Translations under genes and position numbers: made by a program | Notes under the pieces: model-generated | Seen by the model: the letters and a program-made list of their open reading frames with translations, nothing else | Told to the model about the DNA's origin: nothing | The model's database searches: none | DNA from: Cardiobacteriaceae bacterium | GTDB lineage: Bacteria; Pseudomonadota; Gammaproteobacteria; Cardiobacteriales; Cardiobacteriaceae | DNA length: 64,000 nt | Direction: 5' to 3' | Assembly: GCA_030529365.1 (NCBI GenBank) | Contig: JAUMXB010000008.1 | Coordinates: forward strand, 8,271-72,270 | Part shown: positions 1 through 55,054 of the stretch, piece after piece | Layout: every line of letters starts with the position of its first letter | Numbering within the stretch: the stretch's first letter is position 1

Positions 1-1466
1 CTCTACTTCATACTATAACTAACCCTAATTATGATTGGTGTTTTTTATCTGAACCTGATCAAACACGTAATGCTTCTTATGAGATGTGGTCACGAGGGAA
101 ATTGTTAGGAGGATCCTCTGCGATAAATGGCATGGTATTCGTTCGTGGAGCTGCTTCTGATTTTGATAATTGGGCAGCACTAGGGATTCCCGGTTGGGAT
201 TGGGGAAATGTTTTGCCTTATTTCAAGAAATTAGAGACCGTATTGTTCTCTGATTCAGATGCTTCTGATTTAAGAGGTAAAAGTGGTCCAGTGTATATTT
301 CAAAAGTATCTTGGAGACATCCACATTCTAAAGCTTTTATGGATTCATGCGTTAGAAATGGAATTCCTTATAGAGACAGTCTATCTGGTATACATAACAA
401 TGGTGTGAGTTGGTGTGAGACTAATATATACAAAGGTATACGACAATCTTCTTATAGATCTTATATCAAAAATCTTCCAAAGAAAAAAAATTTATCAATA
501 CGAAAAAAGCACTTAGTAAACAGAGTAATTTTTGAGAAACGAAAAGCTGTTGGCGTAGAAATATCTCCAATTGAGAACTCAAATATATCGAGTATTATTC
601 GATCAAAAAGGGGAGTTATTCTTTGTGCTGGTGCTATCAATACACCTCACATTCTTCTTTTATCAGGAATCGGACCAGCTAGTAAACTTGCCCACTTTGG
701 AATCAGTATTGTCAATGATTTACCTGGTGTAGGTGAGAATCTTATAGAACATCCAGGCGTCTATATTCATGCTGATATGAAGTCTCCATCTCAGAATATT
801 TTTGCGAGACCTTGGAATATTCCTATCCAAATTTTGAGATGGATTTTATTTAAGAATGGCCCAATGGCCATACCTGCTGCTCAACTTTATGCATTTCATC
901 ATTCTAAAGAATCAGTGATCGATCCAAACTTACAATTTTTATTTTTTGCTTATGGGGTTCTGCTCAAAGGAACCAAAAGATATATTCCAAATAAAAATTT
1001 AGTTACAATGCTTCTAAATTTAACACATCCAAAAAGTCGAGGATTTTTATCTCTTAAAGACAAAAATTCAAGAGTGCCTATTCAAATTCACCCACAGTTG
1101 TTAAGTTCAGACGAAGATATACAAAGCTTGATTTTAGGAATTAATTTTTTGCGAAAAATTATAAGAACTTCTCCATTTTCTGATTCTATAAAATCATTAA
1201 TAAATTTTAGTATATCATCATCTTCTTATGAAGAAGATTATAATTTTATTCGTAATAATACGAGACCTTTTCATCATTCATGTGGTACTTGCAAAATGGG
1301 AATTGATCACCTTTCAGTTGTATCACCTTCTCTTAGAGTTCATGGGTGTGAAAATATTTGGGTTGCTGACGCATCAATTTTCCCTTTGCCTGTTGCTGGA
1401 AACATTAATGCTACTACCTTAATGATTGGAGAGAAAGCTGCTGATCTAATACTCTCTAATTTATAG
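1..1466 (+). CDS. GMC family FAD-dependent oxidoreductase (choline dehydrogenase-like); 5' end cut by window edge
   Basis: Frame is open from nt 3 with no stop (..NPNYDW..EPDQ..RGKLLGGSSAINGMVFVRGAASDFDNWA..PYFKK), so the true start lies upstream of the window; C-terminal HHSCGTCKMG and GNINATTLMIGEKAADLI motifs typical of GMC oxidoreductases; ~30% GC. Confidence 0.8.
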   Translation, partial: LLHTITNPNYDWCFLSEPDQTRNASYEMWSRGKLLGGSSAINGMVFVRGAASDFDNWAALGIPGWDWGNVLPYFKKLETVLFSDSDASDLRGKSGPVYISKVSWRHPHSKAFMDSCVRNGIPYRDSLSGIHNNGVSWCETNIYKGIRQSSYRSYIKNLPKKKNLSIRKKHLVNRVIFEKRKAVGVEISPIENSNISSIIRSKRGVILCAGAINTPHILLLSGIGPASKLAHFGISIVNDLPGVGENLIEHPGVYIHADMKSPSQNIFARPWNIPIQILRWILFKNGPMAIPAAQLYAFHHSKESVIDPNLQFLFFAYGVLLKGTKRYIPNKNLVTMLLNLTHPKSRGFLSLKDKNSRVPIQIHPQLLSSDEDIQSLILGINFLRKIIRTSPFSDSIKSLINFSISSSSYEEDYNFIRNNTRPFHHSCGTCKMGIDHLSVVSPSLRVHGCENIWVADASIFPLPVAGNINATTLMIGEKAADLILSNL

Positions 1467-1493
1467 CTGATCAAATCTTTCTTTTTATTTTTT

Positions 1494-2297
1494 ATGAATA
1501 ATTTATTTCCTACATTTGATAGGCTTCTTGTTTCTTCACACAAAGTAAAAAATTCTCTTAAATCTAATTTTGTAAAATGTTATTCTATTGGTTATGTAAA
1601 AAACTATCCTGCCGTTAGATACTGCCTCTTACAATTTTGCATCAATAATTATAATAAAGACTTGTTTTCATATTTTAATATTTCTCCTCCAGATAAAATA
1701 ATTAAATTATCTATTGTTAGGCAGGCTGAGTATCTAGCTAGTAGATATGCAATTAGTCTTATTAGAAACAATAATATTTCTTTAGGAAAAAATTTCAATT
1801 TAAGTTCTAAATATAACGTTTGTATTTCCCATAGTAAAAGCTTTGTTATTGTCATTTCGTCTAATAGTTTTCATTCTAATAGATTCGGAATTGACTTGGA
1901 AATAAATAGACTTAAGAATTTTTTTATTATCAAGGATTGCATTTCTTCTGCTCTTGAGCAAAATATCCTGAGTTCTTTAAATATTCCGGTCTTTACTGCT
2001 CTCGCAATTTTATTTTCAGTAAAAGAAAGTTCGTATAAATTATTATCAGATGCTTTGCCGTTTGACTTCAGCTTTGCTGACTTTCGTTTGGTAAGTTTCG
2101 ATGAAAAGAATCAAAAACTAATTCTAGAAACTAGAAATATAAGTCACTCTTCTAATAAAATTTACACAGTAGGGTACTATGACTTTTCTCAAGAAAAGTT
2201 ATTAACTTTGTCTACTTCGAGAGTGCAAATAGATGACGATAAATTGGTCAGCCCGCATGATCTAGTGCTTGCAACATCTTTCGCTGAGCCGACGTAA
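1494..2297 (+). CDS. Sfp/EntD-type 4'-phosphopantetheinyl transferase
   Basis: All three PPTase signature motifs present: CISHS (..ISHS), FGIDLE (GxDxE), FSVKESSYK (W/FxxKExxK); 28-nt gap after the GMC gene suggests co-transcription; ~27% GC. Confidence 0.7.
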   Translation: MNNLFPTFDRLLVSSHKVKNSLKSNFVKCYSIGYVKNYPAVRYCLLQFCINNYNKDLFSYFNISPPDKIIKLSIVRQAEYLASRYAISLIRNNNISLGKNFNLSSKYNVCISHSKSFVIVISSNSFHSNRFGIDLEINRLKNFFIIKDCISSALEQNILSSLNIPVFTALAILFSVKESSYKLLSDALPFDFSFADFRLVSFDEKNQKLILETRNISHSSNKIYTVGYYDFSQEKLLTLSTSRVQIDDDKLVSPHDLVLATSFAEPT

Positions 2298-2313
2298 AAA
2301 TCATCAACAAAGC

Positions 2314-2349
2314 CCCATCAGGCATGTGGTTATCATGCCTGATGGGGTG
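2314..2349. terminator. hairpin between convergent PPTase and integrase genes (candidate bidirectional terminator)
   Basis: Perfect 14-bp inverted repeat CCCCATCAGGCATG-N7-CATGCCTGATGGGG; no long U-tract, so intrinsic-terminator function is uncertain. Confidence 0.4.
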
Positions 2350-3330
2350 TCAACCCAACTTCATGGCGATTTCCGTTGCCGTGGCGTTGTAATACACCAT
2401 CAACGTCTTGGTATCGCGCATACCGGCCATTCTCGCCAAATCCAGAATATGCAGTTTCTGGGCAAGGCGTGTCAATGCCTCATGGCGCGAGTCATGAAAT
2501 CTCATGTCTTCCACACCCGCAAGATTGCGATATTTTCGAAAATTGGCATCGCGCTGCGCACCGTTGATCTTGAAGCAAGTCGGTGCATCACGCGGCAAGA
2601 TCTTCAAAATTTCCACGGCACGCGGTGACAGCGCCACATCACGCTTCCGGCCATTCTTGCTGTGTGGGATATGCACATAGCGTTGCTCCAAATGGACATG
2701 CTGCCATTGCAGATTGAGAATTTCGCCACTGCGCATGGCGGTTTCCAGCGCAAACAACCAGGCGCACGCGACATACTCCCTGATCTCTCGTGGTGGCCGC
2801 AGCTCGGTATATTGAAAAGCTTCGAGAATTCGCCTCTCTTCATCCGGCCAGACACGGCGGTCACGTGATTCAGGTGCTTTCGGCAACGTCAAATGCTCAA
2901 AGGGAGAGGTTCTCAGCCATAACCACTCTCGGATAGCCACACGATACATGGCCTTGACGATGGTCGCTTCCCGCCGAACCGTTCCCGGGGAAACCGTTTT
3001 CAGCCGCCAATCACGCCACTCTGCCCAATCAGCAACCGTGACATTTTCCAGAAGCTGGTTGCAAAGAGGATGTTTCAGGAAATTGTTGATAAATTTTGCC
3101 TCACGACAGGCGCTCTTCTTTTTCGGTGTACACTCTTCCAGATAGCGCATCATGGCTTCTCCCAACGTCTTTCTGGCCGTGGGATGATGTTCGCGATGCG
3201 TCAGCTCATACGTAGTGACAACGGCCCAGCGTTCGCACTCTGCCTTGGTTGGGAAAGAAGCGGACAAGCGTTTCCCCTGATGACAAATCTCCACCCGCCA
3301 CTTGTTTCCCCTGCGTCGAAATGTCGCCAT
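2350..3330 (-). CDS. int: tyrosine-type site-specific recombinase (phage/island integrase)
   Basis: C-terminal catalytic region RFHDSRHEALTRLAQ..LARMAGMRDTKTLMVYYN (R..HxxR..Y); GGGAGG Shine-Dalgarno 7 nt upstream of Met20 (MATFRRRGNKW), so start placed at 3330; track ORF extends to 3387. Confidence 0.85.
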   Translation of the reverse strand: MATFRRRGNKWRVEICHQGKRLSASFPTKAECERWAVVTTYELTHREHHPTARKTLGEAMMRYLEECTPKKKSACREAKFINNFLKHPLCNQLLENVTVADWAEWRDWRLKTVSPGTVRREATIVKAMYRVAIREWLWLRTSPFEHLTLPKAPESRDRRVWPDEERRILEAFQYTELRPPREIREYVACAWLFALETAMRSGEILNLQWQHVHLEQRYVHIPHSKNGRKRDVALSPRAVEILKILPRDAPTCFKINGAQRDANFRKYRNLAGVEDMRFHDSRHEALTRLAQKLHILDLARMAGMRDTKTLMVYYNATATEIAMKLG

Positions 3331-3525
3331 TTTTGCCTCCCGAATCTGGCGTAAATTTGGCGTAAACAATTGCCGAAATTTGCTCATATCTGCATCGTTG
3401 AAGTGTAGTCTTTCACAAGAGAAAAAAGAAAAAACACTTCAATAGCATTTGGTTGAGTATATTTGGAGACGATTGTAACAATCAATCCTTCTCAGGGAAT
3501 AGGCTTCTTCTGGGCACCAGATTCC

Positions 3526-3558
3526 CAAAAAACCGACGGTTTATCCGTCGGTTTTTTT
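3526..3558. terminator. bidirectional rho-independent terminator
   Basis: AAAAAACCGACGG-TTTA-TCCGTCGGTTTTTTT: 7-bp GC stem flanked by A-run and T-run; lies downstream of dsbB (minus strand) and upstream of int start. Confidence 0.55.
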
Positions 3559-3576
3559 ATGCCTGTCATTTGTGCA

Positions 3577-3668
3577 TCATGAGAAATTTTCTCATGATGA
3601 AGCGCTTATTGTGAGAAAATTCCCCGATAAAAGCACTTATTGATGAGAAAAATATATTATTTTTCAGG
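3577..3668. repeat. type-1 palindromic-unit repeat, copy 1
   Basis: GAGAAATTTTCTCATGATGAAGCGCTTATTGTGAGAAAATT..AAGCACTTATTGATGAGAAAAATATATTATTTT; abuts dsbB stop. Confidence 0.7.
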
Positions 3669-4197
3669 AAAAATGATTTTTTGGTGCTTGGGTGCGGCGG
3701 CGTTCGCTCACGATGCAGGCGAGAAGCAGGGCAATGAAAAGTATCATCGACCAGGTGGGGATGGTCAGGGCGAACATGCCTTCCAGCGGCCAGGTGTCTT
3801 TGGTGGCGCAGTCGCCCGTGCCCATCATAGCTTTGGCGAGGCCGCTGAAGAAGGGGGTGTTTTCCATCAGGCCGTAGAAATCGAGGCCGCAGGCGGGCAC
3901 TTCGCCTTCGGGCAGGCTCTGGATATGGAGATGGCGGGCGGCGAGGCCGATGCCGAAGAAGATGCTCAGGTATTTGCCGGTTTTCATGACGACGCTGCCC
4001 ACGGTACCTTGCGGCCACAGCGCGGCATCGAGGAGGAACATGAGGCCGATGAGGGCAAAGGCGATGCGCTGCATGATGCAGAGCGGGCAGGGCGAGAGGT
4101 AGAGGGTTTTTTCCAGATAGAAGTAGGAAAAGGCGATGGAGGCGAAGCAGCCGAGGCCTGCGAGGAGAAGGGTGAGGCGGCGTGTGGAGTCGGTCAT
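3664..4197 (-). CDS. dsbB: disulfide bond formation protein B
   Basis: 177 aa, four hydrophobic segments, CPLCIMQR (CxxC) in first periplasmic loop and second Cys pair (PACG) as in DsbB. Confidence 0.85.
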   Translation of the reverse strand: MTDSTRRLTLLLAGLGCFASIAFSYFYLEKTLYLSPCPLCIMQRIAFALIGLMFLLDAALWPQGTVGSVVMKTGKYLSIFFGIGLAARHLHIQSLPEGEVPACGLDFYGLMENTPFFSGLAKAMMGTGDCATKDTWPLEGMFALTIPTWSMILFIALLLACIVSERRRTQAPKNHFS

Positions 4198-5245: not shown

Positions 5246-5350
5246 TTTCAATTTTTTCTCTAAAATAGTCATTTTTTCTCAACAATAAGCGCTTTATATG
5301 AGAAATTTTCTCGCAACAAGTGCTTATTGTTGAGAAAATTTCTCATTCCG
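5246..5350. repeat. type-1 palindromic-unit repeat, copy 2
   Basis: ..TTCTCAACAATAAGCGCTTTATATGAGAAATTTTCTCGCAACAAGTGCTTATTGTTGAGAAAATTTCTCATTCC; upstream of acnA. Confidence 0.75.
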
Positions 5351-5429
5351 GTTTGGCAATACATTTACCTCGCACCCTGAATGGCTTACAATAAGCGCCT
5401 CATAATTCATAACTATTCGTGAGGCTCTG

Positions 5430-8061: not shown

Positions 8062-8156
8062 TTCAAAAAATAACGATTTATCGTAATTTTTTACCATATA
8101 TAAGCGCTTATCGTGAGAAAATTTCTCAAGATAAGCGCTTGGTATTGGTAAAAAAA
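8062..8156. repeat. type-1 palindromic-unit repeat, copy 3
   Basis: AAAAATAACGATTTATCGTAATTTTTTACCATATATAAGCGCTTATCGTGAGAAAATTTCTCAAGATAAGCGCTTGGTATTGGTAAAAAAACACC; 8 nt after acnA stop. Confidence 0.8.
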
Positions 8157-10561: not shown

Positions 10562-10657
10562 GTGATTTTTTTACCATCATCGCAGTTTTGATGCAATGCT
10601 TTTATCACGATAAGCGCTTGTTCATGATAAAAAATAACGATTTATCACGGTTTTTTG
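10562..10657. repeat. type-1 palindromic-unit repeat, copy 4
   Basis: GTGATTTTTTTACCATCATC..TTATCACGATAAGCGCTTGTTCATGATAAAAAATAACGATTTATCACGG. Confidence 0.7.
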
Positions 10658-14447: not shown

Positions 14448-14538
14448 GTGGTAAAATTTCTCATCATGAAGCGCTTATAGCGATAGATTTTCTCACGATA
14501 AGCGCTTATTCGTGGTAAAAAATTACTATATTTGTCTT
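14448..14538. repeat. type-1 palindromic-unit repeat, copy 6
   Basis: GGTAAAATTTCTCATCATGAAGCGCTTATAGCGATAGATTTTCTCACGATAAGCGCTTATTCGTGGTAAAAAATTACTATATTTG. Confidence 0.8.
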
Positions 14539-18583: not shown

Positions 18584-18670
18584 TGGTAAATTTTCTCATC
18601 ATGAAGCGCTTATGTTGAGAAATTTTATCGCCATAAGCGCTTACGGGTGGTAAAAAATTACTATTTTGAG
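18584..18670. repeat. type-1 palindromic-unit repeat, copy 7
   Basis: GGTAAATTTTCTCATCATGAAGCGCTTATGTTGAGAAATTTTATCGCCATAAGCGCTTACGGGTGGTAAAAAATTACTATTTTG. Confidence 0.8.
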
Positions 18671-28023: not shown

Positions 28024-28110
28024 AAAAATAGATATTTTTTCTCAAAAATAAGCGCTTATTATGAGAAAATTTATCGCAACAAGCGCTTTGGAGTGAGAAA
28101 AAATACTATT
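28024..28110. repeat. type-1 palindromic-unit repeat, copy 11
   Basis: AAAAAATAGATATTTTTTCTCAAAAATAAGCGCTTATTATGAGAAAATTTATCGCAACAAGCGCTTTGGAGTGAGAAAAAATACTATTCC. Confidence 0.8.
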
Positions 28111-31096: not shown

Positions 31097-31181
31097 TGAG
31101 ATTTTTTATCATTAATAAGCGCTTATATCGATAAAATTTCTCATCATAAGCGCTTATGTTTGGTAAAAAAATACTATTTTT
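31097..31181. repeat. type-1 palindromic-unit repeat, copy 12
   Basis: GAGATTTTTTATCATTAATAAGCGCTTATATCGATAAAATTTCTCATCATAAGCGCTTATGTTTGGTAAAAAAATACTATTTTTG. Confidence 0.8.
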
Positions 31182-42734: not shown

Positions 42735-42810
42735 TTTTATCAAAATCAAGCGCTTATCGTGAGAAATTTTCTCTATACAAGCGCTTAAACTTGAGAAAAT
42801 TTACCAAACA
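42735..42810. repeat. type-1 palindromic-unit repeat, copy 17
   Basis: TTTTTATCAAAATCAAGCGCTTATCGTGAGAAATTTTCTCTATACAAGCGCTTAAACTTGAGAAAATTTACC; ends ~3 nt before cysE start codon. Confidence 0.75.
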
Positions 42811-54944: not shown

Positions 54945-55054
54945 TGAGAAATTTTCTCATATATAAGCGCTTATGGTGAGAAAATTTATCGTGATAAGCG
55001 CTTTAGTATGAGAAAATATATCGCAATAAGCACTTTTAGGTGAGAAGTTTTACC
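54945..55054. repeat. type-1 palindromic-unit repeat, copy 21 (longest, three GAGAAAAT units)
   Basis: GTGAGAAATTTTCTCATATATAAGCGCTTATGGTGAGAAAATTTATCGTGATAAGCGCTTTAGTATGAGAAAATATATCGCAATAAGCACTTTTAGGTGAGAAGTTTTACC. Confidence 0.85.

Follow-up and report, generated by a model that had tools for sequence, protein, structure and literature searches.

A low-GC synthetase cassette with an ObiF1-like thioesterase beside a phage-type integrase in a Cardiobacteriaceae genome

Among characterised nonribosomal peptide synthetases (NRPSs), a thioesterase (TE) domain with a cysteine nucleophile and an aspartate in “position II” is found only in ObiF1, the obafluorin β-lactone synthetase, and in SulM of the sulfazecin pathway, and each of these enzymes closes a four-membered ring (PMC11298585, PMC6668435). 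Here we describe a genomic island coding for an NRPS with a TE of similar type, the right part of which lies at the left end of a 64,000-nt stretch of DNA, in the following called the window, from a Cardiobacteriaceae metagenome-assembled genome (MAG; GCA_030529365.1, contig JAUMXB010000008.1, positions 8,271-72,270 of the forward strand). Positions 1-3400 of the window are the right end of a foreign segment of >10.5 kb, which carries a biosynthetic cassette of six genes. Protein comparisons place this cassette in a conserved and apparently uncharacterised family of gene clusters, which is linked by its TE to the ring closers of obafluorin and sulfazecin. It is likely that the locus as a whole is a mosaic island, in which an NRPS cassette with its own priming enzyme and a ring-closing TE has been joined to a phage-type integrase.

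The foreign segment and its biosynthetic operon

The low-GC segment at the left end of the window is of foreign origin. Positions 1-2245 have a GC content of 31.7% (25-41.5% in individual 200-nt windows), compared to 59.5% in the backbone (3664-64000), and between both lie the integrase gene (2350-3387) with 52.6% and a spacer (3388-3663) with 35.9%. The GC content at third codon positions (GC3) is 0.20-0.31 in the cargo genes, 0.58 in the integrase gene and 0.70-0.80 in the host genes, so that three composition classes can be represented by the values 0.22, 0.58, and 0.78. An earlier note on this DNA, made from the letters alone, had described the first ~2.3 kb as low in GC and the rest of the window as having ~63%; the low GC content is confirmed, whereas the low-GC DNA stops already at ~2240, within the 3' end of the open reading frame (ORF) of a 4'-phosphopantetheinyl transferase (PPTase), and the value for the backbone was slightly too high. 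The note's proposal of a recent acquisition from a low-GC donor agrees with the GC3 values and with the serine hydroxymethyltransferase (SHMT) of the cassette, which has by far the most AT-biased amino acid composition among its 120 homologs. Since both the codons and a protein of the cargo are AT-biased, the composition points to a cassette that resided for long in a low-GC lineage and was transferred only recently, without amelioration since then.

The cassette was extended to the left by an exact-protein look-up with the PPTase, which led to the Logan contig L001 (10,793 bp, run SRR24915849). The last 3,608 bases of L001 are 100% identical to positions 1-3608 of the window, and 7.2 kb are added leftwards. 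At NCBI, the same cassette proteins carry the accessions MDO4776959.1 to MDO4776963.1, on an 88.9-kb contig of a Cardiobacteriaceae MAG. In L001, the GMC oxidoreductase gene, which begins 160 nt left of the window, is complete, and upstream of it there are genes for a free-standing MbtH protein, an NRPS, an SHMT and an EamA transporter (Table 1), all with 30-35% GC; the cargo operon as a whole has ~32%. Neighboring genes of the cassette are separated by 1-28 nt, and it is therefore a single operon. Each of the six genes is an intact ORF, has a length typical of the family and retains its catalytic motifs. The earlier note had deduced from the PPTase that a carrier protein-dependent pathway would be encoded further left, which is borne out by mbtH and the NRPS with its condensation (C), adenylation (A), peptidyl carrier (PCP, or T) and TE domains; the upstream DNA does not have backbone GC content and the PPTase motifs hold in a profile search, the opposite of which the note had named as evidence against its reading. 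The extension proposed there yielded cargo genes, but no credible direct repeats in the 10.8 kb of L001. Exact-protein look-ups with the PPTase and the NRPS gave L001 as the sole extending contig and the 345-aa integrase had no exact record; scans of genome contigs and JGI metagenomes with the NRPS recovered no sequence of the island further left. Between mbtH and the left end of L001 lie a 240-bp stretch at 10-25% GC and the remnant of an IS1595-family transposase gene, which by its GC content forms a fourth composition class and has no copy elsewhere within the window.

The synthetase, its partner enzymes and the cluster family

The NRPS consists of one module with the domain order C-A-PCP-TE. 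For the TE, the best match among solved structures is holo-ObiF1 (E 2.9e-19), followed by a hydrolytic type II thioesterase and, in third place, by the monobactam Cys-TE of SulM. The TE shares with ObiF1 the motifs YGHCAG, DPLT and GxHYFV (GDHYF in the island), and its triad Cys1145/Asp1252/His1281 aligns residue for residue with that of ObiF1. The PCP domain carries the attachment motif GGSS. In the C domain the HHIGFDG motif is intact. Among solved structures this domain is most similar to the elongation C domains of TycC and of the fuscachelin PCP-C, and it probably accepts its acyl donor from a carrier protein. A lipid-starter C domain was rejected, as the match to the surfactin starter C domain is far weaker than those to elongation C domains. 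The specificity code of the A domain, derived from an alignment to GrsA, is DMYHLGLMDK and retains H278 and D331, both of which contact the side chain. The sole check on the GrsA reference sequence is that it reproduces the known code DAWTIAAICK. With the serine code DVWHLSLIDK, the code of the island has D235, H278, L299, L322, D331, and K517 in common. From this we infer serine or a serine-like amino acid as the substrate of the A domain.

The SHMT passes the SHMT subfamily model with 428 bits (cut-off 335), and its best solved relative is 7QCW. It keeps K229, E57, and R363 as well as the folate-site residues L121, G125, H126, L127, and N347 (numbering of Escherichia coli GlyA, in the reference sequence of which 19 of 19 listed residues fall at their published positions). 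This pyridoxal phosphate (PLP) enzyme is not an ObiH-type threonine transaldolase, the model of which gives 93 bits (cut-off 650). T55, H65, T175, and C226 replace Y, Y, S, and T in the enzyme. To take T55, H65, and C226 as a sign of a new activity was rejected, as these residues, and T175 as well, are common to all 120 best homologs including an apparent housekeeping copy, and therefore they mark a type of SHMT rather than a new function. The apparently housekeeping copy of the same type adjoins ychF on a 5.7-Mb contig (L088).

The GMC oxidoreductase had been recognized before from its 3' part, with its 5' end outside the window, and this assignment stands both by its Pfam domains and by L001. 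The full-length protein scores 163 bits with PF00732 and 107 bits with PF05199, above the cut-offs, and has the N-terminal FAD fold. The choline dehydrogenase BetA was rejected as an assignment, since the protein reaches 402 bits with TIGR01810 (cut-off 732) and 443 bits with NF002550 (cut-off 605). By these profile scores the enzyme is BetA-like, but it is not filed as a choline dehydrogenase.

The PPTase contains all three signature motifs that had been read from it, CISHS, GIDLE, and FSVKESSYK, in conserved columns of an alignment of 41 sequences, in which H113, G132, D134, E136, F174, S175, K177, E178, and K182 show little or no variation. Its AlphaFold (AF2) model has a pLDDT of 83.8, and with Foldseek the best match is PcpS (E 7e-13, TM 0.64/0.71). 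The model also matches the two-domain enzymes PptT, PptAb, AASDHPPT, and Sfp, whereas AcpS spans only half of it. Profile, alignment and predicted fold agree and confirm an Sfp/EntD-type (type II) PPTase of the two-domain, pseudo-dimeric class. The EntD equivalog model gives 26 bits (cut-off 169), and thus the protein is not EntD itself. An exhaustive HMMER search found 345 relatives with a top identity of 36%; the nearest are EntD-type enzymes of Gammaproteobacteria with 28-36% identity, the named ones from Klebsiella, Obesumbacterium, Kosakonia, Vibrio, and Marinomonas. The PPTase is highly divergent: a phmmer search against the PDB gave no real match, and when 5.8 billion proteins were searched by a word index, nothing but the query itself was returned. 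With relatives at most 36% identical, the PPTase is too distant from all of them for naming the donor lineage, for which the earlier note had proposed such a homology search.

The closest homologs of the SHMT, with 54-60% identity, are located in gene clusters which share a core of mbtH, a C-A-T-TE NRPS, SHMT, GMC and exporter genes, often together with a PPTase gene. In Burkholderia stabilis (GCA_053840135.1, GCA_022556175.1) the cluster comprises AT-ACP, MbtH, NRPS, SHMT, an MFS transporter, GMC and a SucA-like E1, and on an ENA metagenome contig a methyltransferase, AT-ACP, MbtH, NRPS, SHMT, GMC, E1, PPTase, and EamA. JGI metagenome contigs encode NRPS, SHMT, EamA, PPTase, GMC, a LanB-N-like protein and AT-ACP. 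An uncultured Thalassospira has an A-T didomain protein, MbtH, NRPS, and SHMT, and on the other strand GMC, EamA and a 2-hydroxyacid dehydrogenase. The contig of a Tara Oceans scaffold ends after MbtH, NRPS, and SHMT. Compared to the island, the NRPSs are 40-41% identical, the SHMTs 57-63%, the EamA proteins 59-66% and the GMC enzymes 50-53%. Despite this distance, YGHCAGT is found in every NRPS of these clusters and the code DMYHLGLMDK in all four of the aligned relatives, which come from Burkholderia stabilis, two metagenomes and the Tara Oceans scaffold, except that one of them has a single Y-to-F change. Wherever the sequence of a relative extends far enough, it includes a gene for loading the donor (AT-ACP or A-T), in most cases immediately before mbtH. 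None of the clusters examined has a called sulfotransferase gene. The accessory genes vary by lineage, with a SucA-like E1 on contigs L003 and L005, a LanB-N-like protein of 836 aa on L006 and L007, and a 2-hydroxyacid dehydrogenase as well as a 441-aa protein of unknown function on L089. As these genes vary while NRPS code and TE motif are fixed, the family suggests one warhead with a variable decoration or donor. The clusters of the relatives have 48-64% GC and sit in native-looking contexts, in contrast to the 32% GC of the island; they carry AT-ACP or A-T genes and in many cases also encode a SucA-like E1 or a LanB-N-like protein, none of which is found in the island. The version of the island in turn has the most AT-biased proteins and an unrelated EntD-like PPTase, and lies between an insertion sequence remnant and an integrase gene. 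Full-text literature searches, the coverage of which is incomplete so that absence is not proven, gave no description of this cluster family. Tentatively, the core set may define a family of small, so far uncharacterised metabolites derived from serine and with a strained ring (β-lactone), scattered widely over Burkholderia, Thalassospira and marine and other metagenomes, in which the donor is exchangeable (AT-ACP or A-T) and of which the MAG would hold a member freshly imported, together with a PPTase of its own, out of an unsampled lineage with ~30% GC.

Table 1. Positions of the features of the island and its right border (W, window; L001, extending contig).
Feature	Location	Strand	Remarks
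IS1595-family (ISXO2-like) transposase remnant	L001 1-345		Frameshifted C-terminal part; ~43% GC
mbtH	L001 581-796		Free-standing, 71 aa
NRPS	L001 798-4709		1303 aa, C-A-PCP(T)-TE
SHMT	L001 4737-6083		
EamA exporter/transporter	L001 6088-7023		
GMC oxidoreductase, complete	L001 7026-8651		541 aa
GMC-family FAD oxidoreductase, part in window	W 3..1466	+	3' 488 codons; PF00732 154 bits, PF05199 107 bits
EntD/Sfp-type PPTase	W 1494..2297; L001 8679-9482	+	267 codons; PF01648 33.6 bits (cut-off 25)
Joint of very-low-GC cargo and integrase-type DNA	W 2235..2250		GC shift, ends of homologs
Perfect 14-bp stem-loop	W 2313..2347		Between convergent PPTase and integrase genes
Phage-type tyrosine integrase	W 2350..3387	-	345 aa, full length; PF00589 73 bits, phrog_1 181 bits
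9-bp inverted repeat (TTGAAGTGT / ACACTTCAA)	W 3398-3406 / 3434-3442		Read from sequence
Promoter-like site	W 3485-3456	-	Sequence prediction
Bidirectional intrinsic terminator	W 3527..3558		A6-CCGACGG-TTTAT-CCGTCGG-T7; ~105 nt downstream of dsbB; self-inverted match
Dispersed backbone repeat, copy with palindrome CATCATGAGAAATTTTCTCATGATG	W 3575..3625		Self-comparison of window
Host dsbB	W 3664..4197	-	First backbone gene right of island; PF02600 102 bits; GC 0.60, GC3 0.80

Integrase, junction and origin of the island

The cargo is separated from the integrase-type DNA by a sharp joint. The first 240 codons of the PPTase gene have a GC content of 0.27, compared to 0.49 for the last 20, and the majority of the PPTase homologs terminate at query residue 241-249. 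Therefore, the ORF crosses a recombination joint at ~2240 where the native stop codon was lost, and it runs on for ~20 codons to a new stop. The stretch at the joint is not repeated elsewhere in the window.

The convergent integrase of intermediate GC that had been described beyond this joint was found as such. Over the full length, it shares 43-44% identity with the phrog_1 integrases of the group of Acinetobacter phage TRS1 (44%, 100% of the length aligned) and Pseudomonas phage Lodos; R219, K244, H298, and R301 are invariant, and Y332/Y333 is the candidate nucleophile. In phage TRS1, int converges on xis across a bidirectional terminator, and the integrase of the island has the same layout with the PPTase gene, where the stem-loop between both genes looks like a terminator for the integrase gene. 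The putative attP of TRS1 lies 103-131 bp upstream of the position aligning with Met1 of the island integrase, and the end of the Lodos prophage <140 bp upstream of int. In relatives from this integrase family, att is found 100-200 bp upstream of int. According to this layout the body of the element would be located left of int, which is the place of the cassette, and a candidate attachment (att) site is to be expected at ~3490-3580, overlapping the terminator at 3527-3558. Unlike in TRS1 and Lodos, neither an excisionase gene nor other phage genes follow the integrase gene.

No tRNA or tmRNA gene was found by ARAGORN in the whole window and no credible Rfam family at the junction, in line with the absence of a tRNA there in the earlier note. 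Of the other elements reported for the junction, the inverted repeat, the bidirectional terminator and a repeat of a recurring type are all present, but the last belongs to the backbone and not to the island. The inverted repeat would lie in the 5' leader of the integrase gene if transcription starts at the promoter-like site. Further partial copies of the dispersed repeat are found at ~5273-5346, 8100-8128, 10600-10632, 14453-14507, 18588-18622, 28047-28072, 31103-31155, 42748-42802, and 54945-55017. This intergenic repeat looks REP- or MITE-like, and copies of it make up a long hairpin-forming low-GC element at 5260-5356, between a DUF3465 gene and acnA, for which Rfam gives chance matches of miRNA type only. 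L001 ends inside the dispersed repeat, at 3608, so that the precise connection to dsbB depends on the MAG assembly. On the other hand, as the right end of L001 carries this backbone repeat, the island is tied to this genome type.

As a working model of the mosaic island, the PPTase of the cassette would prime the PCP domain of the NRPS. The A domain, together with the MbtH protein, would load serine or a close serine-like β-substituted amino acid, the supply of which is presumably tied to the SHMT. The loaded residue would then be N-acylated by the elongation-type C domain with an acyl group borne by a carrier protein, and the TE would most likely close a four-membered ring, whereby an N-acyl-α-amino-β-lactone is released and exported by EamA. 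The GMC enzyme may contribute an alcohol oxidation. On the level of the DNA, the low-GC cassette would occupy the place of the body of an integrase-bearing, phage-like element. As the integrase gene resembles neither the cargo nor the host in composition and the joint lies at ~2240, the island is of mosaic structure, and the cassette need not have come from its donor by way of this integrase.

Several observations speak against parts of this explanation. The PLP enzyme is a folate-type SHMT, unlike the ObiH transaldolase of obafluorin biosynthesis, and the serine assignment is based on a comparison of codes and on a GrsA reference checked only by its own code. As no product is on record for any member of the cluster family, the release of a β-lactone is proposed by analogy from the TE alone. 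Neither L001 nor the window contains an AT-ACP or A-T gene according to tblastn, and the IS1595 remnant occupies the usual position of the donor gene upstream of mbtH, so that the pathway may be incomplete. The integrase differs in GC content from the cargo and is possibly a fossil that never moved the cassette. Moreover, Met323 (window 2419-2421) replaces the second conserved His of its relatives, changing GH(K/R)D to GMRD, which may mean a weakened integrase. The search for an att-like direct repeat gave only AT-rich chance matches within L001. The nearest genomes by AcnA (78-81% identity), Suttonella ornithocola, “Rappaport israeli” and a Cardiobacteriaceae MAG, have 41-44% GC, and tblastx showed no synteny of the three outside acnA. 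A comparison with an empty site, by which attL and attR had been hoped to be defined, thus defined no sites.

It is a serious, if rather doubtful, alternative that the product is not a β-lactone and that the Cys-TE hydrolyses or transfers its substrate, leading to a linear N-acyl-serine-type acid, an ester or a dimer (cf. serratamolide), or to a β-lactam in case of a β-amino acid. This would fit with the TE being the sole link to obafluorin, with the hydrolytic type II thioesterase as its second-best match, and with the folate-type SHMT, the lack of 2,3-dihydroxybenzoate (2,3-DHB) and aryl carrier genes and the unexplained role of the GMC enzyme. However, the combination of Cys and position-II Asp has so far been found in two ring-closing TEs only, and in a family of ~40% identity the Cys motif is strictly conserved alongside an A domain code that keeps H278 and D331. 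For the β-lactam variant, the sulfazecin route requires a sulfotransferase, for which none of the examined clusters has a called gene.

As to the way of arrival, we consider it unlikely that the integrase is a fossil left by a degraded prophage or island, has nothing to do with the cassette and does not mobilise it, so that the cassette would have come in by another route such as IS1595-associated transposition or illegitimate or homologous recombination at a hot spot. The three composition classes with the sharp joint within the PPTase ORF are in agreement with such a fossil, as are the frameshifted transposase remnant at the left edge, the Met instead of the second His, and the fact that no excisionase, other phage gene or att repeat was found. 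Against this, the cassette lies exactly where the integrases of this family have the body of their element, downstream of the 3' end of int, convergent and with a terminator in between. Furthermore, the integrase is not truncated and has kept its R, K, H, R, and Y residues, and the insertion sequence is a lone remnant without a flanking pair in the visible sequence.

That the cassette is a decaying, non-functional import, which has lost its gene for loading the acyl donor to the IS1595 event and no longer makes the product of the family, appears rather unlikely to us. All five relatives examined have AT-ACP or A-T genes, which were not found here, with the remnant in their place, and the PPTase gene has lost its native stop codon. 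But six intact ORFs of family-typical length have kept their catalytic motifs, and the donor gene could lie left of the insertion sequence, as the AT-ACP gene on contig L007 is not adjacent to mbtH either. A chimera of assembly or binning, with low-GC DNA from another organism in the sample, might be suspected from the MAG source, the extreme GC contrast and the dsbB link crossing the dispersed repeat where L001 breaks, but it is highly improbable, as two assemblies are identical across the joint of cargo and integrase, the joint is free of repeats and read through by an ORF, and the right end of L001 carries the backbone-specific repeat.

Comparison with the obafluorin and sulfazecin systems

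As a genomic island per se, the locus is ordinary. It is nevertheless a very clear case of an un-ameliorated transfer of a biosynthetic operon, with ~32% GC inside ~60% and with an enzyme of its own for priming carrier proteins, which shows how a host without secondary metabolite machinery could acquire a working pathway in a single step. β-Lactone and monobactam warheads are rare and pharmacologically valuable, and the island points to a third lineage of TEs with Cys and position-II Asp, conserved and apparently unstudied, in which motif and code are near-constant across distant bacteria. With Burkholderia stabilis, the family has a cultivable member.

The closest described system is that of ObiF/ObiF1 from Pseudomonas fluorescens and Burkholderia diffusa. 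Both ObiF1 and the NRPS of the island are single C-A-PCP-TE proteins with an MbtH-like partner, although MbtH is fused in the ObiF system and free-standing in the island. Both have an elongation-type C domain, implying a carrier-bound acyl donor, and in both TEs the nucleophilic Cys lies in YGHCAG with Asp and His at the same positions. Beside the NRPS, both systems have a gene for a PLP enzyme with the SHMT fold, which is the threonine transaldolase ObiH for obafluorin and a folate-type SHMT in the island. Obafluorin biosynthesis uses 2,3-DHB on an aryl carrier protein, whereas the relatives of the island load their donor by AT-ACP or A-T proteins, and no DHB, aryl carrier or nitrophenyl pathway genes of the obafluorin type are present in L001 or in the window. 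Island and relatives further differ from the obafluorin system by a serine-like A code and by GMC, EamA, and a dedicated PPTase as conserved extras, and the A-PCP-TE region of the island scores just 325 bits against ObiF1. SulM carries a Q-C-N motif, its substrate is an N-sulfonated tripeptide with 2,3-diaminopropionate (Dap), and it requires a sulfotransferase, none of which applies to the island. The TE of SulM and that of the island, however, both have a Cys nucleophile and both belong to the same clade, which resembles ObiF1 and type II TEs.

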